Shown here: positions 33,330 to 62,723 of the stretch, piece by piece
Layout of the letters: each line of letters starts with the position of its first letter
Numbering within the stretch: position 1 is the first letter of the stretch
Assembly (NCBI RefSeq): GCF_964213995.1
Contig: NC_135820.1
Coordinates: 34,286,001-34,350,000 of the forward strand
Direction: 5' to 3'
DNA: 64,000 nucleotides
DNA from: Mustelus asterias
Taxonomy: Eukaryota
Notes under the pieces: model-generated
The model's database searches: none
Told to the model about the DNA's origin: nothing
What the model saw: the letters and a program-made list of their open reading frames with translations, nothing else
Made by a program: the position numbers and the translations under genes

Positions 33330-34178
33330 GTAAGTTATATTTAGCATTGCTTCAATTGACTGTACCCATATGTTTTATTGTGTAATTGTAATGTCCTAAC
33401 TATGTGGGGGGGTTGTGGGTTTTAAAGAAAAAGATATGGTTTGCACAGGTGGATTCAAAATAATAACAGATTTATTTCAGGAGCTGTTGCCTGTGCAGTG
33501 TAGGAAATGAAACTAAAAAACTGCCTATGTAACATCCAATTACATCACCATTAAATCATATGACTGGCTCTTAAAACAATCATAAAACCACTTAAATATA
33601 GAACAACAGTAGACATTTGATTAAACTCTTAAATATTGAGTTCTTCTTCTCCAATCAGAAGGTGCAAATGTCTGGCCTTGAAATGGGTTAACACCTGAAT
33701 AAAAATGAATACTAGTTTATAACAATCATGTAATGTTGTTATAGAAGTAGCACCAATCAGAAAATATACCCCGGTATGTGTTCACTGAATAGCTTCTTAA
33801 AATCATGCATTTTTAGTTATTAAACTAAAGAGATAATCCTCAATATGACAGATGTTCATGGGGTTACTCCATATATGGACAAGTTTGATTCCATTTGTTG
33901 TTTAAAATATAAGCAGCTACTGTCAGTTTATGTGCACAGTACATAGAAAAACGTATTATACAATAAATATTCCTTGAATAGCCACACTACCAAGAAGCAA
34001 TGCAAACAGCAGGATAGGAAATGAGAACTATCTGATTAAATGGACTGTTAACCGGATCCAAGCTGGCTGGTGAGGCTGAAACCAAGATCTAGAGCTTTTC
34101 TTTACTGAGAGTTTATTGACTTGTTCAACCTCAGCATTCTTCCCATTATACCCAATGTCTCAGCTCTCTCCTATCTAT

Positions 34179-37100
34179 ACAGTATGTAATGGAACCTACA
34201 AGGGAGCAAGCTATTCTAGAACTGGTCCTGTGTAATGAGATGGGAATAATTAATGATCTTGCAGTTAGGGATCTTATTGGAAGAAGCGATCACAGTATGG
34301 TTAAATTTAAAATACAGATGGATCGATAGAAGGTAAAATCCAATATCAGTGTCTTGTGCTTAAACAAAGGAGACTACAAAGGAATGAGGGAGGAGTTGGC
34401 TAAAGTAGACTGGGAGCAAAAACTTTATGGTGAGACAATTGAAGAACAGTGGAGGACTTTCAAAGTGATCTTTCACAGTGCTCAGCAAAAGTATATTCCA
34501 ATGATAAGGAAGGACTGTAGAAAAAGAGATAATCAGGATATCTAAGGAAATAAAGGAGAGTATCAAATTGAAAGAAAATGCATTCAAAGTGGCAAAGATT
34601 AGGGGAACCTAGAGGATTGGGAAATTTTTAAAGGTCAGCAGAAAGCCACGAAAAAAGCTATAAAGAAAAGTAAGATTGATTATGAGAGTAAACTAGCTCA
34701 GAATATAAAAAGAGATAGCAAAGGTTTCTACAAATATATAAAATGAAAAACAGCGGCTGAAGTAAACATTGGTCCTTTAGAGGACGAGAAGGGGGATGTA
34801 ATAACTGGAAATGAGAAAATGGCTGAAGCATTGAACAGATATTTTGTGTTGGTCTTCACAGTGGAAGACACAAATAACATGCCAAAAATTGATGACAGGA
34901 AGGCTATGGCAAATGAGAACCTAGAAATTATCATTATCACAAAAGAGATAGTGTTGGGCAAGTTAATGGGGCTAAAGGTGTTCATGGGGTTGGATGGAAA
35001 ATTTTCGGACTGGAGGCAGGTTGCTAGCGGAGTGCCACAGGGATCGGTGCTTGGTCCTCTGCTCTTTGTGATTTTTATTAATGACTTAGAGGAGGGGGCT
35101 GAAGGGTGGATCAGTAAATTTGCTGATGACACCAAGATTGGTGGAGTAGTGGATGAGGTGGAGGGCTGTTGTAGGCTGCAAAGAGACATAGATAGGATGC
35201 AAAGCTGGGCTGAAAAATGGCAAATGGAGTTTAACCCTGATAAATGTGAGGTGATTCATTTTGGTAGGACTAATTTAAATGTGGATTACAGGGTCAAAGG
35301 TAGGGTTCTGAAGACTGTGGAGGAACAGAGAGATCTTGGGGTCCATATCCACAGATCTCTAAAGGTTGCCACTCAAGTGGATAGAGCTGTGAAGAAGGCA
35401 TATAGTGTGTTAGCTTTTATTAACAGGGGGTTGGAGTTTAAGAGCCGTGGGGTTATGCTGCAACTGTACAGGACCTTGGTGAGACCGCATTTGGAATATT
35501 GCGTGCAGTTCTGGTCACCTCACTATAAGAAGGATGTGGAAGCGCTGGAAAGAGTGCAGAGGAGATTTACCAGGATGCTGCCTGGTTTGGAGTGTCGGTC
35601 TTATGAGGAAAGGTTGAGGGAGCTGGGGCTGTTCTCTTTGGAGCGGAGGAGATTGAGGGGAGACTTAATAGAGGTTTATAAAATGATGAAGGGGATAGAT
35701 CGAGTGAACGTTCAAAGACTATTTCCTCGGGTGGATGGAGCTATTACAAGGGGGCATAACTATAGGGTTCATGGTGGGAGATATCGGAAGGATATCAGAG
35801 GTAGGTTCTTCACGCAGAGAGTGGTTGGGGTGTGGAATGGACTGCCTGCAGTGATAGTGGAGTCAGACACTTTAGGAACATTTAAGCGGTTATTGGATAG
35901 GCACATGGAGCACACCAGGATGGTAGGGAGTGGGATAGCTTGATCTTGGTTTCAGATGAAGGTCGGCACAACATCATGGGCCGAAGGGCCTGTTCTGTGC
36001 TGTAATGTTCTATGTTCTATGTTCTAAGTCTCCTGGTCCTAATGGAATGCATCCCAGGATACTAAAAGAGATGGAGGGAGAAATAGCAAATGCACTAGTG
36101 GTAATTTACCAAAATTCGCTGGTCTCTGGGGTGGTTCCCGCAGATTGGAAAACAGCAAATGTGACGCCACTGTTTAAAAAAGGAGGTAGACAAAAGGCAG
36201 GTAACTATAGGCCGGTTAAATTAACTTCTGTAGTAGGGAAAATGCTTAAATCTATCATCAAGAAAGAAATAGCGAGACATCTGGATATAAATTGTCCCAT
36301 TGGTAAGACGCAGCATGGGTTCATGAAGGGAAGGTCATGTTTGACTAATTTGGTGGAATTCTTTGAGAACATTACAATGGGGACCTGTGGATGTGGGGTA
36401 TCTGGATTTCCAGAAGGCATTTGACAAGGTGCCGCATGAAAGACTGCTGCATAAGATAAAGGTGCACAGTGTTACGGGTAATGTATTAGCATGGATAGAG
36501 GATTGGTTAACTAGCAGAAAGCAAAGAGTGGGGGTAAATGGGTGTTTTTCTGGTTGGCGATCAGTGACTAGTGGTGTGCCTCAGGGATCAATATTTATGA
36601 TTTACATAGATGATTTGGATGGGGACCAAGTGTAGTTTGTCAAAATTCGCAGATGACACTATGATCAAAGTGGCGGAGCAAAGTGTGCCGAGGATGCTGA
36701 AAGTCTGCAAAGGGAGATAGATAGTCTAAGCGAGTGGGCGAGGGTCTGGCAGATGGAGTATAATGTTGGTAAATGTGAGGTCATCCATTTTGGTAGGAAT
36801 AACAGCAAAATTGACTATTATTTAAATGGTAAAAAATTGCAGCATGCTGCTGTGCAGAGGGACCTGGGTGTCCTTGTGCAGGAATCTCAAGGAGTTGGTT
36901 TGCAGGTGCAGCAGGTAATTAAGAAGGCAAATGGAACTTTGTCTTTTATTGTGAGAGGGATGGAGTTTAAAAACAGTGAGGTTATGTTGCAGCTGTATAA
37001 GGTGCTGGTAAGGCCACACCTGGAGTACTGTGTACAGTTTTGGTCTCCTTACTTGAGAAAGGATATAGTGGCACTGGAGGGGTGCAGAGGAGATTCACTA

Positions 37101-37588
37101 GGTTGATTCCGGAGTTGAGAGGGTTGGCTTATGAGGAGAGACTGAGTAGACTGGGGCTATACTCATTGGAATTCAGAAGAATGAGGGGAGATCGCATAGA
37201 AACATATAGGATTATGAAGGGAATAGATAGGATCGAAGCAGGGAAGTTGTTTCCACTGGCGGGTGAAACTAGAACTAGGGGGCGTAGCCTCAAAATAAGG
37301 GGAAGCAGATTTAGGACTGAGTTGAGGAGGAACTTCTTCACGCAAAGGGTTGTGAATCTGTGGAATTCCCTGCCCAGTGAAGCAGTTGAGGCTACCTCAT
37401 TGAATGTTTTTAAGGCAAGGATAGATACATTTTTGAACAGTAAAGGAATTAAGGGTTATGGTGAGCAGACGAGTAAGTGGGGCTGAGTCCATGAAAAGAT
37501 CAGCCATGATCCTATTGAATGGCGGAGCAGGCACGAGGGGCCAGATGGCCTACTCCTGCTCCTAGTTCTTACGATCTTATGTTCTTAT
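34179..37588 (+). mobile_element. Older 5'-truncated CR1 LINE (ORF2 broken by stops and frameshifts), interrupted by a younger CR1
   Basis: EPTREQAILELVLCN, KSPGPNGMHPRILKE, FDKVPH and RPHLEYCVQFW pieces in several frames; 3' tail tcttatgttcttat. Confidence 0.92.
34981..36026 (+). mobile_element. Young 5'-truncated CR1 LINE nested in the older CR1
   Basis: Uninterrupted RT C-terminus (SGVPQGSVLGP...FADD...WNGLP) with its own (TGTTCTA)n tail; the host motif LKV|(D)KSPG is split around it. Confidence 0.9.
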
Positions 37589-38711
37589 ATGCTCTTTTTA
37601 AGAAACGGATGAACCTGTACTTAATTATAAATGTACATGTTATGTGTGCCCTGCCCCGAAGTAGCCCCTTGGCCCGTTGTCAGCTGATGCTTCATCCTGA
37701 GCTCTTGGCAGTTTTTGTCAGTGCTGGTTACCATTGCCTTCCACACTCCGGGAAGGAGGTAGGCCCCAATTCTATCTCTGCCGGTATAGGAATCGAACCT
37801 GCACTGTAGGCATTATTATACAAATTAGGGGCAGGAGTAGGCCACTCAGCCCTTCATACCTGCTCTGAACTGTGTGCTAGCCATCTAGCAACTTGGCTAA
37901 ACTATCCCTGACCCCCTATTTATATCTGTTTCAACTTTAACTATGTAATTAACATTAACAATCCTTAACAATGGAATTGATAAGACTCTGTTGATGGTCT
38001 GTGGTCGAGGCCAGGAAATAAATTACAATTTGTGAGACCTTCCATGATGTTATGATATTCTAATGGGCAGTAACCACAGAAAATCCTAAAAAAAAATAAA
38101 CCCACTGTTTGTTTCATGTATATTTTAACTCACTTGGTGGAAAAAAAATCAAAATTCTTGTTGGTTCTTGTATTCACAATATTAAAAAAGTCAATGAAAT
38201 GATCAAAATTAGTGTTAGGAACCCATTATTGATAAAATCAGATATAGGCAGACTTTATGTAATAACTCAACTTTGTTGTAGGAATGTTTGAGCTGATCTG
38301 TGGTTCTGTGCACATTGCATTCAATCCGTCTCCAATGTTAAGACTGATTTCAGTTACTTTAATCACTCACTCCCTGAGTTACAAGTAGCTTGTCAATGAG
38401 TGGATGAATAACAGCTATGTGTAAGGTGTTAAGAATGTGGCTGAAAATTTAATAATGGCACAAAATGAATGGAGGGCACAGGGCAAAATAATGTTTAGTA
38501 AAACTAAAGTTTTGTTCTAAGCTTTTGCATTCTGGCCTTACAACTCTCTGCCTCTCTAGCTTTAGCTGTTCCTTTAAGGACACTTCTAAAAAAAAACCTG
38601 CCTCCCCTGTTCTAAGAACATAAGAACATAAGAAATAGGAGCAAGAGTAGGCCATCTAGCCCCTCGAGCCTGCCCCGCCATTCAATAAGATCATGGCTGA
38701 TCTGACGTGGA

Positions 38712-41700
38712 TCAGTACCACTTACCCGCCTGATCCCCATAACCCTTAATTCCCTTACCGATCAGGAATCCATCCATCCCCGCTTTAAACATATTCAGCG
38801 AGGTAGCCTCCACCACCTCAGTGGGCAGAGAATTCCAGAGATTCACCACCCTCTGGGAGAAGACGTTCCTCCTCAACTCTGTCTTAAACCGACCCCCCTT
38901 TATTTTGAGGCTGTGTCCTCTAGTTTTAACTTCCTTACTAAGTGGAAAGAATCTCTCCGCCTCCACCCTATCCAGCCCCCGCATTATCTTATAAGTCTCC
39001 ATAAGATCCCCCCTCATCCTTCTAAACTCCAACGAGTACAAACCCAATCTCCTCAGCCTCTCCTCATAATCCAAACCCCTCATCTCCGGTATCAACCTGG
39101 TGAACCTTCTCTGCACTCCCTCCAATGCCAATATATCCTTCCTCATATAAGGGGACCAATACTGCACACAGTATTCCAGCTGCGGCCTCACCAATGCCCT
39201 GTACAGGTGCATCAAGACATCCCTGCTTTTATATTCTATCCCCTTCGCAATATAGGCCAACATCCCATTTGCCTTCTTGATCACCTGTTGTACCTGCAGA
39301 CTGGGCTTTTGCGTCTCATGCACAAGGACCCCCAGGTCCCTTTGCACGGTAGCATGTTTTAATTTGTTTCCATTGAGATAGTAATCCCATTTGTTATTAT
39401 TTCCTCCAAAGTGTATAACCTCGCATTTCTCAACGTTATACTCCATTTGCCATATCCTCGCCCACTCACTCAGCCTGTCCAAATCTCTCTGCAGATCTTC
39501 TCCGTCCTCCACACGATTCACTTTTCCACTTATCTTTGTGTCGTCTGCAAACTTCGTTACCCTACACTCCGTCCCCTCCTCCAGATCATCTATATAAATG
39601 GTAAATAGTTGCGGCCCGAGTACCGATCCCTGCGGCACGCCACTAGTTACCTTCCTCCAACCGGAAAAACACCCATTTATTCCGACTCTTTGCTTCCTGT
39701 CGGATAGCCAGTCCCCAATCCACTTTAACACACTACCCCCAACTCCGTGTGCCCTAATCTTCTTCAGTAGCCTTTTATGGGGCACCTTATCAAACGCCTT
39801 TTGGAAATCCAAAAACACCGCATCCACCGGTTCTCCTCCATCAACCGCCCTAGTCACATCTTCATAAAAATCCAACATGTTTGTCAAGCACGACTTTCCC
39901 CTCATGAATCCATGCTGCGTCTGATTGATCGAACCATTTCTATCCAGATGCCCTGCTATCTCCTCTTTAATAATGGATTCCAGCATTTTCCCTACTACAG
40001 ACGTTAAGCTGACCGGCCTATAGTTACCCGCCTTTTGTCTCCTTCCTTTTTTAAACAGCGGCGTAACATTAGCCGTTTTCCAATCAACCGGCACTACCCC
40101 AGAATGCAACGAGTTTTGATAAATAATCACTAACGCATCCACTATTACCTCTGACATTTCTTTCAATACCCTGGGATGCATTCCATCCGGACCCGGGGAC
40201 TTATCCACCTTCAGTCCCATTAGTCTACCCAGCACTGCCTCTCTGGTAACATTAATTGTATTAAGTATTTCTCCTGCTGCCAACCCTCTATCGTTAATAT
40301 TTGGCAAACTATTTGTGTCCTCCACCGTGAAGACCGACACAAAAAACTTATTTAAAGACTCAGCCATATCCTCATTTCCCACTATTAACTCCCCCCTCTC
40401 GTCCTCCAAGGGTCCAACATTCACTCTAGCCACTCTATTCCTTTTTATATATTTATAAAAACTTTTACTATCATTTTTTATATTAATTGCTAGCCGAGCT
40501 TCATAGTCTATCCTTCCTTTCTTTATCGCTTTCTTAGTCTCTCTTTGTTGTTTCTTAAATTTTTCCCAATCACTTGTTTCTCCACTATTTTTGGCCACTC
40601 TGTACGCAGCTGTTTTTATTTTAATACTCTCCTTTATTTCCTTCGTTATCCACGGCTGGTTCTCCCTTTTCTTACAATCCTTGTTTTTTGCTGGAATATA
40701 TTTTTGCTGAGAACTGAAAAGGATCTCTTTAAAAATCCTCCACTGTTCCTCAGCTATCCTACCTGCCAGCCTGCTCTCCCAGTCTACCTTAGCCAATTCA
40801 TCCCTCATCCTATCATATTTCCCTCTGTTCAAACAGAGGACACTGGTTTGGGACCAAACTTTCTCCTCTTCCATCTGAATCAGAAATTCGACCATATTGT
40901 GGTCACTAGACCCAAGAGGGTCCTTCACAATAAGATCCTTAATTCTACCTACCTCGTTACACAATACCAGATCCAAAATAGCTCGTTCCCTCGTCGGTTC
41001 CGTAACATGCTGTTCAAGGAAACTATCCCGACAGCATTCTAAGAACTCTTCCTCCATTCCACCCTTACCGACTTGAGTCTGCCAGTCAATGTGCATGTTG
41101 AAGTCCCCCATGATTATTGCCGTTCCGTTTTTACACGCATCCCTTATCTGCTTGTTTATAGCCCTCCCTACCTCAACATTATTATTTGGGGGCCTATATA
41201 CCACACCTACTAGTGTCTTTCTCCCTCTACTATTCCTCATCTCTACCCATAATGATTCCACGTTTTGTTCCTCAGAGCCTATGTCATCCCTCAGTACTAC
41301 CCTGATATTATCTCTTATTAATAGCGCGACCCCACCAACTTTTCCTTCCTGTCTATTCTTCCTAAACGCCTGATACCCCTGGATATTCATCTCCCAGTCC
41401 TGGTCACCTTTCAGCCACGTTTCTGTAATGGCCACTAGATCGTACCCACTCGTGCTGATTTGCACCATCAACTCATTTACCTTGTTCCGAATGCTTCGTG
41501 CATTCAGGCAAAGTGTCCTTATTCCAGCTTTTATCTGGACCCGCTTTGATGAGTCGCGAACACCCTCTCCCTCTACTCCCTTATCTAAATTACCGCCTTC
41601 ATTCACTTGCACCCTCTCCTCTACCATTAATTTTGTAATTCCCCTTACCCCTGCATCCTCCACCCCATCAATTAGTTCCTTGATCCTAGTCAACTCTTCT

Positions 41701-41717
41701 AGCTCCCCTCCCCCCAA
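38712..41717 (-). CDS. CR1 LINE ORF2: APE endonuclease + reverse transcriptase
   Basis: 1001 aa with no stop; LNARSI, ITETWL, MGDFN, SDHN (endonuclease); QHGF, FDKVPH, GVPQGSVLGP, FADD (RT). Confidence 0.97.
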   Translation of the reverse strand: MGGGELEELTRIKELIDGVEDAGVRGITKLMVEERVQVNEGGNLDKGVEGEGVRDSSKRVQIKAGIRTLCLNARSIRNKVNELMVQISTSGYDLVAITETWLKGDQDWEMNIQGYQAFRKNRQEGKVGGVALLIRDNIRVVLRDDIGSEEQNVESLWVEMRNSRGRKTLVGVVYRPPNNNVEVGRAINKQIRDACKNGTAIIMGDFNMHIDWQTQVGKGGMEEEFLECCRDSFLEQHVTEPTRERAILDLVLCNEVGRIKDLIVKDPLGSSDHNMVEFLIQMEEEKVWSQTSVLCLNRGKYDRMRDELAKVDWESRLAGRIAEEQWRIFKEILFSSQQKYIPAKNKDCKKRENQPWITKEIKESIKIKTAAYRVAKNSGETSDWEKFKKQQRETKKAIKKGRIDYEARLAINIKNDSKSFYKYIKRNRVARVNVGPLEDERGELIVGNEDMAESLNKFFVSVFTVEDTNSLPNINDRGLAAGEILNTINVTREAVLGRLMGLKVDKSPGPDGMHPRVLKEMSEVIVDALVIIYQNSLHSGVVPVDWKTANVTPLFKKGRRQKAGNYRPVSLTSVVGKMLESIIKEEIAGHLDRNGSINQTQHGFMRGKSCLTNMLDFYEDVTRAVDGGEPVDAVFLDFQKAFDKVPHKRLLKKIRAHGVGGSVLKWIGDWLSDRKQRVGINGCFSGWRKVTSGVPQGSVLGPQLFTIYIDDLEEGTECRVTKFADDTKISGKVNRVEDGEDLQRDLDRLSEWARIWQMEYNVEKCEVIHFGGNNNKWDYYLNGNKLKHATVQRDLGVLVHETQKPSLQVQQVIKKANGMLAYIAKGIEYKSRDVLMHLYRALVRPQLEYCVQYWSPYMRKDILALEGVQRRFTRLIPEMRGLDYEERLRRLGLYSLEFRRMRGDLMETYKIMRGLDRVEAERFFPLSKEVKTRGHSLKIKGGRFKTELRRNVFSQRVVNLWNSLPTEVVEATSLNMFKAGMDGFLIGKGIKGYGDQAGKWY

Positions 41718-41722
41718 CCTAT

Positions 41723-42652
41723 CTAGTTTAAATTCTCCCCAGTAACCTTAGCCAACCTACCGGCCAGGATATTGGTCCCCGTGTGATTCAAGTTCCACCC
41801 GTTTTTTGTATACAGATCACCCCTGCCCCTAAAGAGGTCCCAATGGTCCAGGAACCTGAATCCCTGCCCCCTGCACCAGTCCCTCAGCCACACATTCATC
41901 TTCCACCTCACTCCATTCCTGCCCTCACCTTCCCGTGGCACAGGCAGTAATCCTGAGATTACTACCTTTGCTTTCCTCTTTCTCAGCTGTCTCCCTAATT
42001 CCCTGTACTCCCTTTTCATGACCCCTTCTCCCTTCCTACCCACATCAGCGGTACCAATATGTACCGCTACCTCAGGCTCCTCTCCCTCCCACCTCAGGAT
42101 TTCCGGGACGCGACTAGCGACATCCTGGATCCCGGCCCCAGGGAGGCAGACCACCATGCGAGAATCCCGCCTACCTCCGCAGAAACGCCTGTCTGTCCCC
42201 TTCACCATCGAGTCCCCGATTAATACCGCCTTCCTCCTCTTTTCCTTAGCCCTCTGAGTTACAGGGCTGGACTCCACTGCGGAGACACGGCCACTGCTGC
42301 TTCCCCCAGGCGGGCTGTCCCCCCCAGCAGTACTCAAGCAAGAGTACTTGTTGTGCAGGGGCAAATCCACTGGGGTGCTCTCAACCACCCTAGCCTTACC
42401 CTTCCTGGCCATCACCCACTTGGCCTCCTCCCGTTGCCCTGGTGTGACCACCTGATGATAGCTCTTGTCTATCACCTCCTCATTCTCCCTCATCAGCCTA
42501 AGATCCTCGAGCTGCAGTTCCAGCTCCCTAACACGGTCCCTCAGGAACCGCAGCTCGACACACCCCTCACAGATGTGGATGTCTGGGAGGCCAGATGCCT
42601 CCAGGACCTCCCACATCCTACACTGGGAACAACACACTGGTTTCACACTCAT
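41723..42652 (-). CDS. CR1 LINE ORF1: N-terminal Zn-finger/leucine zipper + SGNH esterase
   Basis: ATG at 42652; CxxC...CxxC, coiled coil LRDRVRELELQL, IGDS, CLPGA, HIGT and LNHTG esterase blocks. Confidence 0.93.
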   Translation of the reverse strand: MSVKPVCCSQCRMWEVLEASGLPDIHICEGCVELRFLRDRVRELELQLEDLRLMRENEEVIDKSYHQVVTPGQREEAKWVMARKGKARVVESTPVDLPLHNKYSCLSTAGGDSPPGGSSSGRVSAVESSPVTQRAKEKRRKAVLIGDSMVKGTDRRFCGGRRDSRMVVCLPGAGIQDVASRVPEILRWEGEEPEVAVHIGTADVGRKGEGVMKREYRELGRQLRKRKAKVVISGLLPVPREGEGRNGVRWKMNVWLRDWCRGQGFRFLDHWDLFRGRGDLYTKNGWNLNHTGTNILAGRLAKVTGENLN

Positions 42653-42983
42653 ACTGGACACTTTATGTCAAGTAAGACAGTGAAAAGTTAATAAGAGTGT
42701 AAGGAAACAAAAACTCACCCCTGCTCGTCCAAGCCCTGTGAGCCAAAGCCCTGACAGCTCACTCAACTTCCCACTCACTCTGCCGCCCGCTACGATGCTG
42801 CCCGCTGTATACTTTGGTGCGCTTTTAAACCCTCCAAAAACTTCCCCAGGCCTCTCCTGGCCCGACTTCCGGTTTTGAAAAAAACCTCCGATTTTAAACC
42901 CAAAATTAACTGAAAAAATAAATAATTAATTAAAGTCAGAAAACCCACTCTCTTACCCTCAGCCTGCTCCTGGGAACAAATCC

Positions 42984-43768
42984 CTGATATTAACAACTGA
43001 TATTAAACCCAAACAACTGAGATTAAACCCAAACAACTGGGATTAAACCCAAACAACTGATATTAAACCCAGAACAACTGAGACTAAACCCAGAACAACT
43101 GATATTAAACCCAAACAACTGAGATTAAACCCAAAACAACTGAGATTAAACCTAAACAACTGATATTAAACCCAAACAACTGAGATTAAACCCAGAACAA
43201 CTGATATTAAACCCAAACAACTGATATTAAACCCAAACAACTGAGATTAAATCCAAACAACTGATATTAAACCCAAACAACTGAGATTAAACCCAAACAA
43301 CTGATATTAAATCCAAACAACTGAGATTAAACCCAAACAACTGAGATTAAACCCAAACAACTGAGATTAAACCCAAACAACTGAGATTAAATCCAAACAA
43401 CTGAGATTAAATCCAAACAACTGAGATTAAACCCAAACCACTGAGATTAAATCCAAACAACTGAGATTAAACCCACAACAACTGGGTTTAAACCCAAACA
43501 ACTGAGATTCAATCCAAACAACTGAGATTAAACCCACAACAACTGAGATTAAATCCAAACAACTGAGATTCAATCCAAACAACTGAGATTAAACCCACAA
43601 CAACTGAGATTAAATCCAAACAACTGAGATTAAACCCACAACAACTGAGATTAAACCCAAACAACTGAGATTAAATCCAAACAACTGAGATTAAACCCAC
43701 AACAACTGGGATTAAACCCAAACAACTGAGATTCAATCCAAACAACTGAGATTAAACCCACAACAACT
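42984..43768. repeat. Minisatellite, ~39 copies of a 20-21 bp unit (CTGAGATTAAACCCAAACAA)
   Basis: Direct head-to-tail units with few variants (GAT/TAT, CCC/TCC, CCCACAAC). Confidence 0.97.
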
Positions 43769-43927
43769 TTCTAATAGCTCCTTATGCAGCTTGGTGCCAA
43801 ACTTTTAACGATACTCTTGTGGAGTGTCTTGGCTCATTAAAGGTGCTATGTAAATGCAGTTGTTCACCTCGAGTCCTACAATTAGTCATCTTTTATTCCT
43901 TAATTTCCCCGCAATTGTTCATTACAG

Positions 43928-44119
43928 CAGGAACACAAAAAGGGCTTGGAGCTGTTGAAAGAAGCAAAGCAGCTGGATGGTTTTTCGTATCCTGAGTTTG
44001 CAGCGTTCGGAGATATGGTGGAAAATTTCAAACTACGGCTGAACAATTTTCACATTCGAGCTCAGAGACGTCAGGTGGAACTGGAGGCTCTAGTTAACTT
44101 ATACAGCTACTGTGATAAG
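43928..44119 (+). CDS. RhoGEF exon J QEHKKGLELLKEAKQL...LVNLYSYCDK
   Basis: Tandem acceptor tacAGcAG (start 43928 or 43931), donor AAG|gtttgc; phase 0/0. Confidence 0.88.
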
Positions 44120-45581
44120 GTTTGCATCAAGACCATCGTAACTCGAAGAACTATAAAATAAATGGCTTATTCACGAGATTTCTTCATGTGATGTTAAAAA
44201 TTGCATGAGTTAGATAAAGTATAATAAAATCCATAATTACCATTCCACAATTTTCCTTGCCAGGACTGACTGGCACTCCAGAGTAAAAGACTTTCGAGCA
44301 GCTACACTGAGGTCTAACCAACATATATGCTGGAATTTTACCGCCTCACCTACCCGAGGCTTGTAAGATCCCACCCAAGACCAACGGAGGATGCTGTTCT
44401 GCGAGCCTCGCCCACCCCGATTCCAGGGCAGTGTGCCGGTAAACCTCCAGCCATAGAATTGAAGAGGGTTGACCTGTTTGGAAGTTTATGAGTCCAAGTA
44501 ACTGTTAATTTTGTCCCGGATTATCATTGCAACCAACTTTCACCTGATGTTAATCTGACTGGCTGTAGTTGTTGGATTTATTCTGACACCCCAGTTGAAT
44601 TCAACTCTCCCATCCCGGAATGCCTCTAATTGGGTGTCACTGCTTCCCTCTGGGCCATTTGGGTCATTTACATTCAAATATTGCTTGGGAATTCAACCAG
44701 GAGTTGGGTTTGAGCCTCGCTTTGAGAAGCCATTCCACAGAAACACTTGAGAAATGGAGTGACTTTTACCTCCTTTCTCTGATGTTTCCATGAACCTCTT
44801 GTCAAAGATAAATTCAACATTTTGGGGGAATCCCCACATGATAACTGGAGCAGGTCTACCTGTTAGCTTGTGGCAGGGATTCTCTGACCTCGTCCGTGGC
44901 TGGGATTCTCCAGTCCTGCTGCTGTGAATGGAGATTTGGCTGAATGCCAAATTCTCCATTTTCACTGGCAGTGATGGTGGAGTGAATGAGAGTGGAGAAT
45001 TTTGGCCTGCATGTTTTGTTTCCTCCAAAATGTGGTGGATAAGGGAAGTGACAACCCTATGTTACGTGTTTAAAATCCACGTTCCTCGGACAAAGGATGT
45101 CCAAAGATGTTAGGTGGATTGGCCATGGTAAATTGCCCCGTCGTGTCAGGGGGACTAGCTAGGGTAAATGTATGGGGTTATGGGGATAGGGCTTAAGTGG
45201 TATGATGGTCGGTGCAGATTGGATGGGCCGAATGGCCTCCTTCTGCTCTGTAGGATTCTATGATTCTAAATACACAAATAGCCAATAGAAGCCCAAGGAA
45301 AACAGTTAAAGATATAGGTTTGGTAACTTTGTTCTGCATGGTAAAGGTATATTCAATATAAATAACAGAAAATGCTGGAAGCATGCAACAGGTCAGTCAG
45401 TAACTGTGCAGAGAGCAAATAAATTCGCTTCTTCAAACCTGATCATCTGCTTCTTCCACAGTTATTCACTAATGTGCTGTTTGTTTCCAGTATTTACTCT
45501 TTTTTTCCTTTTAGAATTCCGGCATCTGCAGTATTTTCTTTTTTAACGAACATTCATTGCATGTTTTTCCTCTTTCGTTAG

Positions 45582-46408
45582 GCCACAAAGTTTGCCGAGG
45601 ATTGTAAATATTACTTGAACCAGTCAGGAACATGCAACGAAACAATGTTGGATTATCTTGAGAGTTATCATCAGAGGTTTGCAGAGTACTCCGTGGAAAG
45701 ATTCCGCCAGGTGAAGAGCCAGGTTCATAGCCTAAACAGTACTAAAGGGATGAAGATGTGGAACGTGACCTGGCTGAGGTGTCAGGAGGTCCGGCAACTC
45801 CTGGAGGAAAAGCTGGAATTTTGTCGGAAGACCCTGAAAGCTGTTACAACTCCATCATTGGACATCAATGGAGAGACAAAGGGCACTGTTCAGAAGGACG
45901 ATAAAGATATTGTCACAAGTAGCTCTCATGTGTGTGGGAGCTCTCGGCCTGAAGATGATGTAATGTGTCAAAGAAAGGAAAATTGCAAGCCTTTGCCTCC
46001 CAGGAACATTCAGAGTCGTAAAGAAAACACGACAAATAATCCAAACAGAGCACCTGCAAACTCTTCAACATTTAACTGGCCCCTGTGGCTGCATTCAGGT
46101 GAGGTTTCCAGCGACAAGAGCAGCTCACAGATTTGTTCTCTCCCTTCGTATTCTGATCATGTCTTCTCTCCTCCCATTCGACACAAAAGTTATCCTTCGA
46201 AGAAGATTCTGCAGGCAGCACAAGGTTTTCAGTTGTCCCGGCATGCAAGCTTCTGCTCTGAAGACAAAGGCCCAAGGCATACTCCAATGAACAGAAATAG
46301 CAGTGGCGTTACTGCAGCTATGAGTCCTGACCTAAGTAGAGTTCCAGGGCCAAGCTCAGAACATGGGACAATGCAGGAATTGAAGAAGAAAACAAAGAGA
46401 AATTCCTA
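45582..46408 (+). CDS. RhoGEF exon K (827 nt): end of spectrin-like region plus Ser/Pro-rich linker
   Basis: Acceptor tcgttAG, donor TA|gtaagg; open for 275 codons (ORF 45615-46409 frame); phase 2 joins the T of the next exon to give TAT. Confidence 0.85.
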
Positions 46409-46650
46409 GTAAGGATATTAACTCCTTTCCATTATATGTTAATATAAGAAACCAGTACATTTTTGTTCCCTGAGGTGAACTTTGGGACAATTACATTTCA
46501 ACTCCTCAATTCCCAAATCATATCTACCCCTAAAAGGCACAAATCTGGAGTGTTGTGCTGTCCACTCACTTGGATGGGTGCAATTGCTGCAACAATGAAA
46601 AAGCCTTCAGAACAAAGCAGTTCACTTGATGGGCACCATATTTGCCAGCT

Positions 46651-57291: not shown

Positions 57292-57462
57292 GTGAACCTA
57301 AAGGAGCAGGGCCAGTTGTTACGTCAAGATGAATTTGTTGTATGGTGCGGGCGAAGGAAATGGTACAGACACATCTTCCTCTTTGACGAACTCATACTCT
57401 TCAGCAAGACCAGAAAAGCAGAAGGAAGCAATGGCATCTATATTTATAAACAGTCCTTTAAG
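57292..57462 (+). CDS. RhoGEF exon O VNLKEQGQLLRQDEF...YIYKQSFK (PH domain first half)
   Basis: Acceptor ttgttcctAG, donor AAG|gtagag; RHIFLFDELILFSK PH motif. Confidence 0.95.
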
Positions 57463-58136
57463 GTAGAGTTTGTACATTTTCTAGTCTTCTCAACTATACT
57501 GTTTGATGGAAATAAGATATATTTAATAGAATATCAAATATTCTGCTTAATATTAGATGGCCCAATTGGGAATTTTTGCATCTGGGACGACATATAAACT
57601 GTGTGAGGATATTGTGAAGATAGCCTATGAATTAGCTTGAACCTTTAGGTAGCCTTTTCAATACATTAGCATGAAAGCTTTAATTAACAAGCAAAGTTAT
57701 GATGTTATAACACCACTACTTATCTCATGCTTGTATATTTGTGTTTAACCTATTTTCCTGCAAGACCTTTAGAGTTTTTAAAGACTTTAAACTATCTGGC
57801 TGGAATAAAATTATTTTGATAAAGTACTGTTAAAGGCATTAATTAAATTATGGCAAACTTATAATTAGTTAATATTGGCTAAATTCTATTGCCTTTTCTC
57901 TTGAGAAGTTGAATGTTATGTTTTATTGCAGGTACAGCAGGTTAGGTTGATTTTTGGGGGGCTGAGTTAGAACCATTGCAATTTAAGTTTAGTTTCTGTA
58001 AGCAAGGATAAGGTCAGAGTGTAAGGCGCATGCTCATTTCAACATTAGATCAATTAGTAGCTTTCTCGGTTTTTACAGATTGTTCTAGCTGCATCTGTAA
58101 CAAAATGGTGGCTGATACTACAACCTAATGGGCCTG

Positions 58137-58389
58137 TGTGGTGAACCATCGTTGGTTGCCACTGTGGGGGTTGTATAATGTTGTTGGGTTAGGGTGTTTA
58201 CCTGTGGTAGATGTTGTTATGGCACATCCCGGTCGGGCCCCGCCTCCTGGGGAGAGGTATAAGACCCTCTGCTCCGGCGGGACCCCTCCAGTCTGAACTG
58301 GTGTACTCGTGTTAGTTAGTTCCATTGTTTGCTAATAAAAGCCTTCAATAGCTGAAGCCTTGTTCCACGTGCTTGATTGTCGCGCATCA
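58137..58389 (+). repeat. 5' LTR (GC box ~58238, TATAAGA 58258-58264, AATAAA 58334-58339)
   Basis: Direct repeat of 62471-62723. Confidence 0.97.
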
Positions 58390-58431
58390 ATTTTATTAGC
58401 AAACATAAAACTCTCAACAGTAAAAGGGAGT

Positions 58432-61400
58432 ATGGAACAAATATTAAAACCAGAACGTCTGGCGCTGGACCCACGTGCGGTCGGTGCCGCTAACACCTTC
58501 GACCACTGGTGGAAGTGTTTCGAAGACTACCTGGCAGCCTCTGTAGCTGTTACTACAGACGATGACAAACTCCAGGTCCTCCACGCGAGGGTAAGCGACA
58601 CGATTTATCTTGCGATTCGTGCGGCCACCACTTACCCGAGGGCCATCGAGCTCTTGAAGAAACGATATACGAGACCACCCAACGAGATACACGCTCGTTA
58701 CCTCCTCGCTACACGACGTCGGCAGTCGGGCGAAACCATGGAGGACTACGCCAATGAGCTCTTGCAGCTTGCCAGGGGTTGCGATTGTAAAGATGTGTCA
58801 GCAGAGCAATATATGTACGACCTCGCTCGAGATGCGTTCGTAGCAGGGGTAGGGTCCTCGTACATCCGGCTTAAGTTATTAGAGAAAGGGAACCTCAACT
58901 TGACCCAAGCGATGGAGATGGCTGAGATGCTGGAAGCAGCGTCGAAAAGCTTGGCTCTGTACCCCGAAGACCACGCGGAGACAACGTGGCAAGAGCAAGC
59001 ACAAATCCCTCCTCGCCCCACGGGCTCGCGCTCCCATATCGATCCGACGACGGCGGCAGCTCCAGGCGGCCAGCGATGCTATTTTTGCGGCGGGGCCAAG
59101 CATTCACGGCAGCAGTGTCCTGCAAAAACGGCAATCTGCAGCCAGTGTGGTAAAAAGGGCCACTATGCTAAAGTTTGCAGGTCGAAGCCCAAAAACGGCA
59201 GTGCAGCCTGTGACCCTCCAGAGCGGAGACAATCTCCTTCGGCGTCGCAGTACCCACGAGGTCCGACCACATGCGAATCCAGGACGGCGCCATCGTGGCT
59301 GACGGAGGAGGAGGAAGACCACCAGGAGTCGCTACGTTTGGCGCCCTCACCCACGTGCGATTCATGGGGGCGGCCATCATGGTCAACGACGACTAGGAGC
59401 GACCAGCAGGGGTCCTCAGCATCAACCTCGGCTGCATGCAGTGACGCCCGGGGGCCAACGGTGGCGTCGATCTCTCTGGACCAGACAAAGCATCACAGGC
59501 TTGATAATTCCATGATGAACATCAAGGTAAATGGTCGTACTGTGTATTGTCTGTTTGACAGTGGGAGCACCGAGAGTTTTATTCACCCTGACACTGCAAA
59601 AAGGTGTGGACTCCGGGTTCTACCTGCCAAACAGACAATTTCCATGGCATCACGGTCCCGGTCTGTACCGATCCAAGGACGTTGTATGGTAACCCTAGAG
59701 GTACAGGGCACAATTTACGAGCAATACAGGCTCCTTGTGTTACCGCACCTTTGTGCACCAATTCTCCTCGGACTAAATTTTATGGTCCACATGAAGAGTG
59801 TGATCCTACAGTACGGTGGGCCACTCCCTTCACTGGCAGTAGGGAATCAGCCGCAGCCTCCAAATTGCCCAAAGCGCCCCGCATGCAATCTCTCCACACT
59901 AAAAATCACCACACCTTCTTTATTTAAGAATCTGGTACCAGGCTGCAAGCCCATTGCTACTAAGAGTAGGCGTTACAGCGCTGAAGACCGGATCTTTATC
60001 AGATCTGAGGTTCAGCGGCTCCTCAAGGAAGGGATCATACAGGCCAGTGCTAGTCCGTGGAGAGCGCAGGTCGTGGTGGTTAAAAGCGGGAACAAACCTC
60101 GGATGGTCATCGACTACAGTCAGACCATTAACCGTTATACGCAGCTGGATGCGTATCCTCTCCCGCGCATTTCTGATATGGTCAATCAGATTGCGCAGTA
60201 CCGGGTGTTCTCTACCATAGACCTTAAGTCCGCCTACCATCAACTCCCCATCCGCCCAGAGGACCGACAATACACGGCTTTTGAGGCGGATGGTCGTCTA
60301 TACCATTTTCTCAGGGTTCCATTTGGTGTCACCAATGGGGTCTCGGTCTTCCAGCGTGCTATGGACCGAATGGTGGACCAGAACGGGTTGCGGGCTACCT
60401 TCCCGTACCTGGATAACGTCACCATCTGCGGCCATGACCAGCAGGACCATGACACGAATCTCCAACACTTTCTGCGCACTGCATCTCGCCTGAATCTGAC
60501 CTATAACAGGGAGAAGTGCGTATTCCGTACGCGCAGGTTAGCTATCCTTGGATACGTGGTGGAAAACGGGGTCATTGGCCCTGATCCAGATCGTATGCGC
60601 CCCCTTACTGAACTTCCCTTGCCCGCTAGCACAAAAGCACTGAGGAGATGCCTCGGCTTCTTTTCGTATTATGCGCAGTGGGTCCCCAACTACGCGGACA
60701 AAGCTCGTCCGCTCATCAAGTCCACGACCCTCCCACTCACGCCGGAGGCCCAATTGGCCTTCAAGGCTTTGAAAAGCGACATTGCGAAAGCCACGATGCA
60801 CGCGGTGGATGAATCCATCCCTTTCCAGGTGGAAAGTGATGCATCTGATTTCGCCCTAGCCGCCACACTAAACCAGGCAGGCAGGCCCGTTGCGTTCTTT
60901 TCCCGCACCCTTCAAGGCCCCGAAATTCGGCACTCAGCGGTGGAGAAGGAGGCTCAGGCCATTGTGGAGGCCATCAGACACTGGCGCCATTACCTGGCGG
61001 GGAAGCGGTTCACCCTGATCACGGATCAACGATCCGTGGCGTTTATGTTCAGTAACACGCAGAGGGGCAAGATCAAGAACGATAAGATCTTGCGGTGGAG
61101 AATTGAGCTCTCCACCTATAATTACGATATTATGTATCGTCCAGGGAAGCTCAATGAGCCCTCGGATGCCCTCTTGCGCGGAACATGCGCCATCATGCAG
61201 GAGGACCGCTTGAAGGCCCTCCACAATGACCTGTGTCATCCTGGAGTCACCCGACTCTACCACTTCGTAAAAGCCCGCAACCTGCCCTACTCGGTGGAGG
61301 ATGTCAGGTCAGTGACGAGAAGCTGTCGGATTTGCGCGGAATGCAAACCGCACTTTTATCGACCGGACCGGGCACAATTGGTCAAGGCCACTCGCCCCTT

Positions 61401-61452
61401 CGAGAGGCTGAGTGTGGATTTTAAGGGCCCCCTTCCCTCAACGGACCGGAAT
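58432..61452 (+). CDS. Gypsy gag-pol polyprotein (Gag with two CCHC knuckles, protease LFDSGS, RT, RNase H, integrase Zn finger)
   Basis: Single frame from ATG 58432; CYFCGGAKHSRQQC, CSQCGKKGHYAKVC, PFG, YLDN, SDASD, HPG...CRIC motifs; frame breaks at ~61452. Confidence 0.93.
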
Positions 61453-62407
61453 TGTCTATTTTCTCAATATAATAGACAAGTACTCCCGGTTCCCGTTTGT
61501 TGTCCCCTGTGCGGACATGTCGACTGCCACAGTGATTAAGGCATTCAGTGATCTTTTTACCCTGTTCGGGTACCCCTGCTACATACATAGCGACAGGGGC
61601 TCGTCGTTCATGAGTAACGACTTGAGGCAATTCCTGCTCTCATACGGGATTGCCTCTAGTAGAACCACGAGCTACAACCCTCGGGGTAACGGACAGGTGG
61701 AGAGGGAGAATGCTACAGTCTGGAAGGCTGTCCTACTGGCGCTGAAATCCAGGGGCCTTCCAGTCTCCCGTTGGCAGGAGGTCCTTCCAAATGCGCTTCA
61801 TTCCATCCGCTCCCTCCTGTGTACGGCAACCAATGCTACTCCCCACGAGAGGATGTTCTCATTCCCTCGGAAGTCGTCCTCGGGGATCTCCTTACCAGCC
61901 TGGTTGACGTACCCAGGACCCGTCCTTCTGCGGCGACATGTGAGGGCCCGCAAGTCCGACCCCTTGGTCGAACCGGTCCAACTCCTCCACGCCAACCCTC
62001 AGTATGCCTATGTAGCATATCCTGACGGGCGAGAGGACACAGTCTCGATTCGAGACCTGGCGCCCGCAGGGGACGTAGCAACTCCTGTCGCTCCCATACC
62101 CCCTGTCACGAATCCCCTATCACTTATTTCTTCCCCAGACGTGGCGCGGTCAGCACCGGGACCAGTGCATAACAGTTATACTCCCATGTACAGCTTGCCT
62201 GAGACTTGGAGATCGGCGCCACCACAGAAGGTTCCAGGATCCCCTGCACCATCGCCTCACCAGGGTCAACCGGCCCGGGAGTCCTCGAGGGGACAGCCGG
62301 ACGCTGTTTTGGAGAGAACGCCACCGCAAGCACCTGCTCCGGTGTCGCAACCGGTGTTGAGGAGATCACAGCGACGGTGCGGTCCTCCAGACCGTCTGGA
62401 CTTGTGA
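61453..62407 (+). CDS. Gypsy integrase core and C-terminus (after a +1 frameshift)
   Basis: YSRFPF, IHSDRGSSF, YNPRGNGQVERENA DDE motifs and terminal LRRSQR...PPDRL; frame is +1 relative to upstream pol. Confidence 0.9.
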
Positions 62408-62470
62408 ATTTTGTACATATGTGACCTGTTTTCGCACCCCGCTGGCCTTTGTTTTTAAAGGAGGGGTGAA

Positions 62471-62723
62471 TGTGGTGAACCATCGTTGGTTGCCACTGTG
62501 GGGGTTGTATAATGTTGTTGGGTTAGGGTGTTTACCTGTGGTAGATGTTGTTATGGCACATCCCGGTCGGGCCCCGCCTCCTGGGGAGAGGTATAAGACC
62601 CTCTGCTCCGGCGGGACCCCTCCAGTCTGAACTGGTGTACTCGTGTTAGTTAGTTCCATTGTTTGCTAATAAAAGCCTTCAATAGCTGAAGCCTTGTTCC
62701 ACGTGCTTGATTGTCACGCATCA
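62471..62723 (+). repeat. 3' LTR (AATAAA 62668-62673)
   Basis: Identical to the 5' LTR except A62716 vs G58382. Confidence 0.97.

Follow-up and report, generated by a model that had tools for sequence, protein, structure and literature searches.

The window analysed here is a stretch of 64,000 nucleotides (nt) from Mustelus asterias (NCBI RefSeq assembly GCF_964213995.1, contig NC_135820.1, positions 34,286,001 to 34,350,000 of the forward strand). It carries on its minus strand a CR1 long interspersed nuclear element (LINE), whose two open reading frames (ORFs) meet at a candidate site of -1 ribosomal frameshifting. ORF1 (window positions 41723..42652; stop-to-stop 42667-41723) encodes 309 amino acids from its first ATG at 42652: an N-terminal Cys motif, a linker and an SGNH/GDSL esterase domain, followed by a C-terminus that reads Leu-Asn-stop. 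The esterase matches the Pfam family Lipase_GDSL_2 (PF13472, E 4.7e-10), and the protein is related to the ORF1-encoded protein of PDB entry 4c1b (E 6.4e-22). ORF2 (38712..41726, minus strand, 1004 codons counted from the base after the shift site) matches Exo_endo_phos (PF03372), PF14529 and RVT_1 (PF00078), and thus comprises an apurinic endonuclease (APE) and a reverse transcriptase. The named closest relatives of ORF1 come from rays and sharks, and the junctions resemble, by eye, the rows for sharks and rays that carry the CR1 label in the supplement of PMC13343379.

On the minus strand ORF1 ends GAG AAT TTA AAC TAG, so that the heptamer T_TTA_AAC (41726..41732) stands in X_XXY_YYZ phase with the ORF1 codons, directly before the stop (TAG, 41723..41725). 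ORF2 lies in the -1 frame relative to ORF1 and is open across the heptamer (stop-to-stop 41747-38712, 1011 amino acids); on its 5' side it is closed by a stop at 41748..41750. A G-rich tract, the candidate stimulator, occupies 41705..41719 and begins 6 nt past the heptamer, and the linker between the ORF1 stop and the endonuclease start (41526..41722) is open in -1 and measures 200 nt with the stop codon included. U_UUA_AAC is the -1 frameshift heptamer of coronaviruses, and a first-pass annotation of the sequence had proposed that it may fuse the two ORFs here. Re-reading the sequence agrees with that annotation on the position and phase of the heptamer, on the open -1 frame, on the predicted fusion length (309 + 1004 = 1313 residues) and on an in-frame linker ATG (41625..41627, predicted product 971 amino acids), which proved to be specific to this family; the overlap of the two frames is short as described, though the upstream stop lies 6 and not about 8 codons before the heptamer. 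A single heptamer is weak evidence, since the window copy holds 7 in-phase X_XXY_YYZ heptamers by chance across about 1310 codons; the case therefore rests on conservation. An in-phase A_AAA_AAC at 41807-41801 (minus strand) is a second heptamer in the window family, 25 codons upstream, at which a -1 slip would terminate at the upstream -1 stop.

The junction is the state of the family and not a mutation of the window copy: among 30 young copies all keep the heptamer and the ATG at 41627, one being without the stop and one having TAA. For more distant families, the same genome was searched with six diverged ORF1 proteins and additionally with one remote protein, labelled as annelid, whose C-terminus is not Leu-Asn (LN); 80 loci were hand-picked from the match lists to span identity bands, and 215 loci with 187 distinct junctions were analysed altogether. 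TTTAAAC is present in 176 of the 187 after re-anchoring within a few bases, and in 169 if the end of ORF1 is extrapolated from the protein alignment only, without re-anchoring on the motif. Of the 11 junctions without it, five have TTTAAAT, likewise a slippery sequence, four differ by another single letter, and two lack any such motif. Loci found with the annelid-labelled query have the heptamer in 30 of 31 distinct cases.

Clustering of the junctions at 10% gave 18 groups, 13 of which hold three or more copies and are called families here; in an earlier subset, family representatives share 62-89% nucleotide identity over the 3' 450 nt of ORF1. Every one of the 13 families has TTA and AAC as its final two ORF1 codons, and the base before TTA is T in all 13, although it belongs to five different codons (GGT, AGT, GAT, TGT and ACT). 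As a background, 37 other degenerate columns with invariant amino acids were taken from ORF1 and the endonuclease in the same families: 36 vary synonymously, among them all 8 six-fold degenerate columns, and one is fixed. TTA makes up 9.8% of the Leu codons and AAC 49 of the 140 Asn codons in the compared windows. The stop that follows the heptamer is TAA, TAG or TGA across the families. Our comparison indicates that the heptamer is conserved beyond the amino-acid constraint, a check that the first-pass annotation had suggested for the motif, its phase and the -1 offset; a synonymous change destroying it was found in 0/13 families. The upstream -1 stop is likewise kept, in 12/13 families and 135/187 copies, through a fixed Ala GCT codon that is the sole fixed codon of the background.

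That Leu-Asn is merely required at the esterase C-terminus, or inherited from a common ancestor, with the heptamer as a by-product, is in our view a most improbable account: the families are indeed related and chance heptamers do occur in the window copy, but the other invariant residues vary in their codons, LN stays terminal while its spacing from the DxxH motif changes, many related esterases have no LN (see below), and no route to an ORF2 product is provided.

Where an endonuclease match allowed the offset of ORF2 relative to ORF1 to be read (179 junctions), it is -1 in 140, +1 in 23 and 0 in 16. The off-frame copies mostly differ by 1-2 bases from the modal length of their family, often within the G run, and look like decayed copies with indels. 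All modal linker lengths (101, 110, 113, 116, 122, 125, 131, 134, 161, 173, 176, 200, 227 and 251 nt) place the endonuclease in -1, which holds for every family with a modal length, one three-copy family being too decayed for a mode; a variable offset between families was thus not observed. Stops within the first 30 codons past the ORF1 stop, counted without filtering over the 179 copies, number 39 in -1 versus 147 in frame 0 and 167 in +1.

An in-frame ATG before the endonuclease is absent from 83 of the 114 intact linkers, so that ORF2 cannot depend on an ATG like that at 41627 across the group. In six families no intact linker has one, and in two well-sampled families all do. The nearest relatives, loci L170 and L172, have the endonuclease type of the window copy but not its 41627 ATG; in the window itself two ATGs in the ORF1 frame (41668 and 41656) precede it. 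In L170 and L172 we also noted a vestigial first endonuclease start within the linker, with the -1 frame kept. In loci L250 and L266, ORF2 is open for 968 codons from the heptamer and its first Met is at 126, past the conserved endonuclease motifs Asn (N48) and Glu (E75), to which we ascribe a catalytic role; an AUG-initiated product would thus be without both motifs. An ATG in -1 within the short upstream overlap occurs in only 8/187 copies.

Outside this genome, the evidence comes from proteins and from published consensus sequences. Among 43 close ORF1 homologues, the C-terminus is LN in 31, IN in one and LNLNG in another; the remaining 10 end elsewhere and appear truncated or mispredicted. 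The sources of LN-ending homologues are named as a snake, snapping turtles, a lizard, the Komodo dragon and an eel. One further homologue (P0023, 51% identity) ends GLN and carries the source name Pseudomonas aeruginosa SGNH hydrolase; it is likely host DNA in a bacterial assembly. A profile search gave 148 matches (92 with the DxxH motif; C-termini 45 LN, 9 GN, all of them QGN, and 3 KN). Many related esterases have no LN end, and where it is present LN stays terminal while its distance from DxxH varies between 25 and 39 residues. An X_XXY_YYZ heptamer could encode 22 of the 39 C-termini left after de-replication (18 xLN, 3 QGN and 1 SKN), as against 24 of 468 internal positions. QGN fits G_GGA_AAC, and SKN fits A_AAA_AAC, as far as can be read from the protein. 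DNA of non-shark relatives was found neither in the metagenome contigs nor in the viral contigs searched; two weak matches to prokaryote-labelled genome contigs (25% over about 210 amino acids and 55% over 20 amino acids) were not used.

Junction DNA of other taxa was taken from the consensus sequences in the supplement of PMC13343379, about 400 letters of each. By our reading, 17 of 23 matches of TTTAAACTA in this supplement lie at an ORF1 end, and an independent anchor on the esterase motif places the heptamer in 7/7 rows with a visible ORF1 end, a further row being truncated before that point. Heptamer and stop together are found in the rows AllMis, CroPor, LatCha, CalMil, AmiCal, AquCat, AldAff, HypSab, PriPec, ScyCan and SquAca. 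These labels we take to include crocodilian, coelacanth, chimaera and bowfin, among others. In the AllMis rows the G tract keeps the register it has in sharks, some SquAca rows do not show this, and crocodilian-labelled rows have TGA at the place that matches the upstream -1 stop. Taken together, we regard the deeply conserved, recoding-type signal of esterase CR1 LINEs as real, judging from these sequence comparisons.

The G tract is the second conserved component of the junction. With positions numbered from the start of the stop codon, all 13 families have a fixed G at +11, +13 to +15 and +18 to +20, third codon positions among them, while GGG makes up only 110 of 280 Gly codons in the background. 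It is the part of the element most prone to form a G-quadruplex: in 19 of the 21 long copies it ranks among the top 4% of windows, and the predicted fold holds a quadruplex in 12 of these 21. A two-tier quadruplex pattern 5-9 nt after the heptamer is present in 109/187 copies versus 7% in the background. In the experiments reported in the accessible part of PMC3919603, quadruplexes stimulate -1 shifting when they follow UUUAAAC at a distance of 5 nt, with a best spacer of 6-8 nt. A weak quadruplex is thus plausible for most families, the alternative being a protein bound to the G run. The stimulator is the least certain step of our explanation: of the earlier proposal for this tract, its position was borne out, and its nucleotides proved to be fixed, but a conserved structure was not found. 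For pairing of the G tract, recurring upstream sites near -425 and -650 were noted, which are probably C-rich coding patches. A local hairpin was rejected; a short stem of the TTCAG/CTGAA type, which visual inspection shows in a handful of families, does not extend to the families at large. The tract also contains UGGGA, which we take to be a motif resembling a termination upstream ribosomal binding site (TURBS); such a role was rejected because UGGGA lies downstream of the stop and is absent from the window family.

The mechanism that we favour would work as follows. Most ribosomes would stop at the ORF1 stop and release the ORF1 protein, and a minority would slip by -1 on U_UUA_AAC and read on through the linker, the endonuclease and the reverse transcriptase, giving an esterase-endonuclease-reverse transcriptase fusion with a predicted length of 1313 amino acids in the window copy. 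A stop codon adjoining a slippery site may contribute to frameshifting, and pausing may arise here from this stop together with the G tract at the mRNA entrance, the latter acting as a weak two-tier quadruplex in most families or through a protein bound to the G run. The outcome would be a fixed excess of ORF1 protein over polymerase, and the upstream -1 stop may serve to discard ribosomes that slipped earlier. That a minority of ribosomes make the ORF1-ORF2 fusion by slipping at this site seems to us likely. A broader version has in our judgement slightly better than an even chance of being correct. In it, a Gag-Pol-like fusion would have supplied the polymerase for more than 400 million years in the esterase CR1s of jawed vertebrates, and probably also in distant relatives bearing G_GGA_AAC or A_AAA_AAC; a fixed G run (as quadruplex or protein-bound) would drive the stop-adjacent slippery site in place of a pseudoknot, and the conserved upstream -1 stop would act as a filter.

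Several observations weigh against this explanation. The 13 families are related, so that their agreement is a comparison with a matched background and not 13 independent trials. As many as 39/179 copies are not in -1, and an in-frame ATG is present in 31/114 intact linkers, the window copy among them. One lineage (L031, L035, L038 and L195) has a SART1-like TAATG stop-start at the junction, with the heptamer retained. On the protein side, 17/39 distant C-termini do not fit a heptamer; the profile used for ranking was built from LN-ending proteins and is therefore biased toward LN; and the test of the preceding residue is weak, with 18/18 against a background of 0.85. As to the stimulator, no conserved stem or pseudoknot was detected downstream (z 0.2-0.6), the consensus fold of the junction is empty, the G tract has no shared downstream partner in the 21 long copies, and an Rfam comparison of the junction gave one match at chance level and none that is convincing. 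The two-tier quadruplex pattern is absent from three families (0/17, 0/9 and 0/25), and the stimulating quadruplexes described in the portion of PMC3919603 at hand were built from G3 tracts.

The strongest of the rival explanations is termination-reinitiation: ribosomes would stop at the end of ORF1 and restart in -1, at a UAAUG, a non-AUG codon or a downstream AUG such as that at 41627, to make a separate ORF2 protein. Mammalian L1 offers a non-AUG restart for ORF2 as a parallel. The TAATG overlap of the one lineage and the ATG-containing linkers speak for such a process, and an open -1 linker is predicted by reinitiation as well; moreover, the codon that overlaps the ORF1 stop in -1 is ATT, ATA or GTG in several families. 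In other families, however, this codon is GAT, GAA or GTT, and the window junction (TAG AT) has no UAAUG overlap. A restart at 41627 would have to pass the two preceding ORF1-frame ATGs, and it finds no counterpart in L170 and L172. Reinitiation also leaves the fixed TTA, the fixed AAC and the preceding T unexplained. SART1 is a precedent for such coupling in the review PMC3894237, which, in the part of it available to us, also judges reinitiation after a long ORF to be improbable. We consider this alternative unlikely.

Less likely still, and in our opinion rather remote, is that heptamer, stop and G tract together form some other RNA or DNA signal, such as an element resembling an internal ribosome entry site (IRES), a binding site for the ORF1 protein or a host protein, or a splice signal, with ORF2 translated from a spliced or internally entered message. 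G positions fixed at third codon positions with no conserved fold are what a protein-binding site would show, and, in the sections of PMC3894237 that we could draw on, entry resembling that at an IRES has been suggested for the ORF2 of LINEs. Against this stand the exact, in-phase fit of the heptamer to X_XXY_YYZ and, on protein evidence, the apparent exchange of this heptamer for other slippery-compatible ends in distant relatives; the donor-like GT reads GA or AT in several families. A weak further point is that the contigs of four runs held no joints at 80% likeness; the RNA status of these runs is guessed, and the result is not evidence on splicing or expression.

Some observations concern the element and its surroundings more generally. 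The 5' untranslated region of the window copy (42653..43768, minus strand) includes a 20-nt tandem array at the 5' end of the element (42992-43768, 38 copies), which is common to some young copies: 8 of the 30 match to 43389 or further, near the edge of the fetched loci, and 7 start at 42713-42714. The 3' untranslated region (38613..38711, minus strand) terminates near 38613 in a short tandem repeat of the TATGTTCT type and not in poly(A). The DxxH motif of the esterase reads NGWN in the window family (about 41803-41789, minus strand), while other families keep D..H. This family is young, with at least 140 of 150 scored matches at the top score and 100% identity over the last 100 amino acids, and it has probably spread recently with an inactive esterase. 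It also looks chimeric: its ORF1 groups with L173 and L170, its endonuclease with L170, L037 and L149, in a grouping where four endonuclease rows are on long branches, probably from frameshifts.

The studied copy has two older, 5'-truncated CR1 ORF2 fragments (34144-35943 and 36020-37587, plus strand) as tail-to-tail neighbours. Exon-like pieces of a host gene with an SOS1/NGEF-like PH domain, presumably RhoGEF-like, are found at 57292-57594, 43904-44161 and 45582-46409 (plus strand), and the CR1 copy probably lies antisense within an intron of this gene. A young gypsy-type long terminal repeat (LTR) retrotransposon at 58137-62723 (plus strand), with LTRs 99.6% identical, encodes protease, reverse transcriptase, RNase H and an integrase that is split over two frames near 61412-61539.

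If the proposed frameshift takes place, ORF2 annotations that begin at the first Met would be truncated, the CR1 polymerase would bear the esterase module of ORF1 N-terminally, and the ratio of ORF1 to ORF2 protein would be set in a retroviral manner. Under the broader version, birds, reptiles and sharks would have the ORF2 protein of their main retrotransposon misannotated at its N-terminus. Expression of an active CR1 would then require that the junction be kept intact. The fixed G run would likewise be a candidate for a natural frameshift stimulator other than a pseudoknot. As the site is only 7 nt long and at a fixed position, the question of how LINE ORF2 is translated becomes directly testable. 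That question is called open in the LINE protein review PMC3894237, whose available part names UAAUG coupling, reinitiation and IRES as routes to ORF2 and does not use the word 'frameshift'. CR1-group elements, according to the consulted portion of PMC13343379, are the dominant retrotransposons in most vertebrate species.

Relative to the descriptions of CR1 in PMC13343379 and PMC3905857, the recoding signal is the added feature. The word 'frameshift' is absent from the main texts of PMC13343379, PMC3905857 and PMC2881922; the Atkins review, in the part at hand, mentions HeT-A among non-LTR elements, with no occurrence of 'CR1'; and a literature search covering sources in part found no paper that describes a CR1 frameshift, although an older mention is possible. 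Frameshifting by -1 is itself a familiar mechanism, and for LINEs one precedent has been stated: TRE5-A and TRE3-A of Dictyostelium need a -1 frameshift for the translation of ORF2, as stated in the accessible portion of the review PMC5911963. In many LTR elements of animals, pol lies in -1 and is accompanied by sites of the X_XXY_YYZ type, as given in the sections of PMC5009743 consulted.

The closest known systems are the esterase-type CR1 LINEs of vertebrates (PMC13343379, PMC3905857), which likewise combine an SGNH esterase ORF1 with an APE-reverse transcriptase ORF2 and have the same heptamer and stop in published consensus rows (supplement of PMC13343379). TRE5-A and TRE3-A are likewise APE-type non-LTR elements, with a stated need for a -1 shift, but they belong to a different clade and host, and the likeness is drawn from the statement of the review and not from a comparison of the shift sites. 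With SART1 and L1 the element shares a bicistronic LINE message in which ORF2 follows right after ORF1, and one CR1 lineage has TAATG; most of the CR1 families compared here, however, lack an AUG at the stop codon and retain a slippery heptamer for which neither UAAUG coupling in SART1 nor reinitiation in L1 has any use. From viral and LTR gag-pol sites the CR1 junction differs in that no conserved pseudoknot or hairpin was detected, that a Pfam search of the element's proteins found no protease domain, and that the stop directly follows the heptamer. Like those sites, it has an in-phase X_XXY_YYZ heptamer, a second ORF in -1 and a G-rich sequence at a 6-nt spacer.

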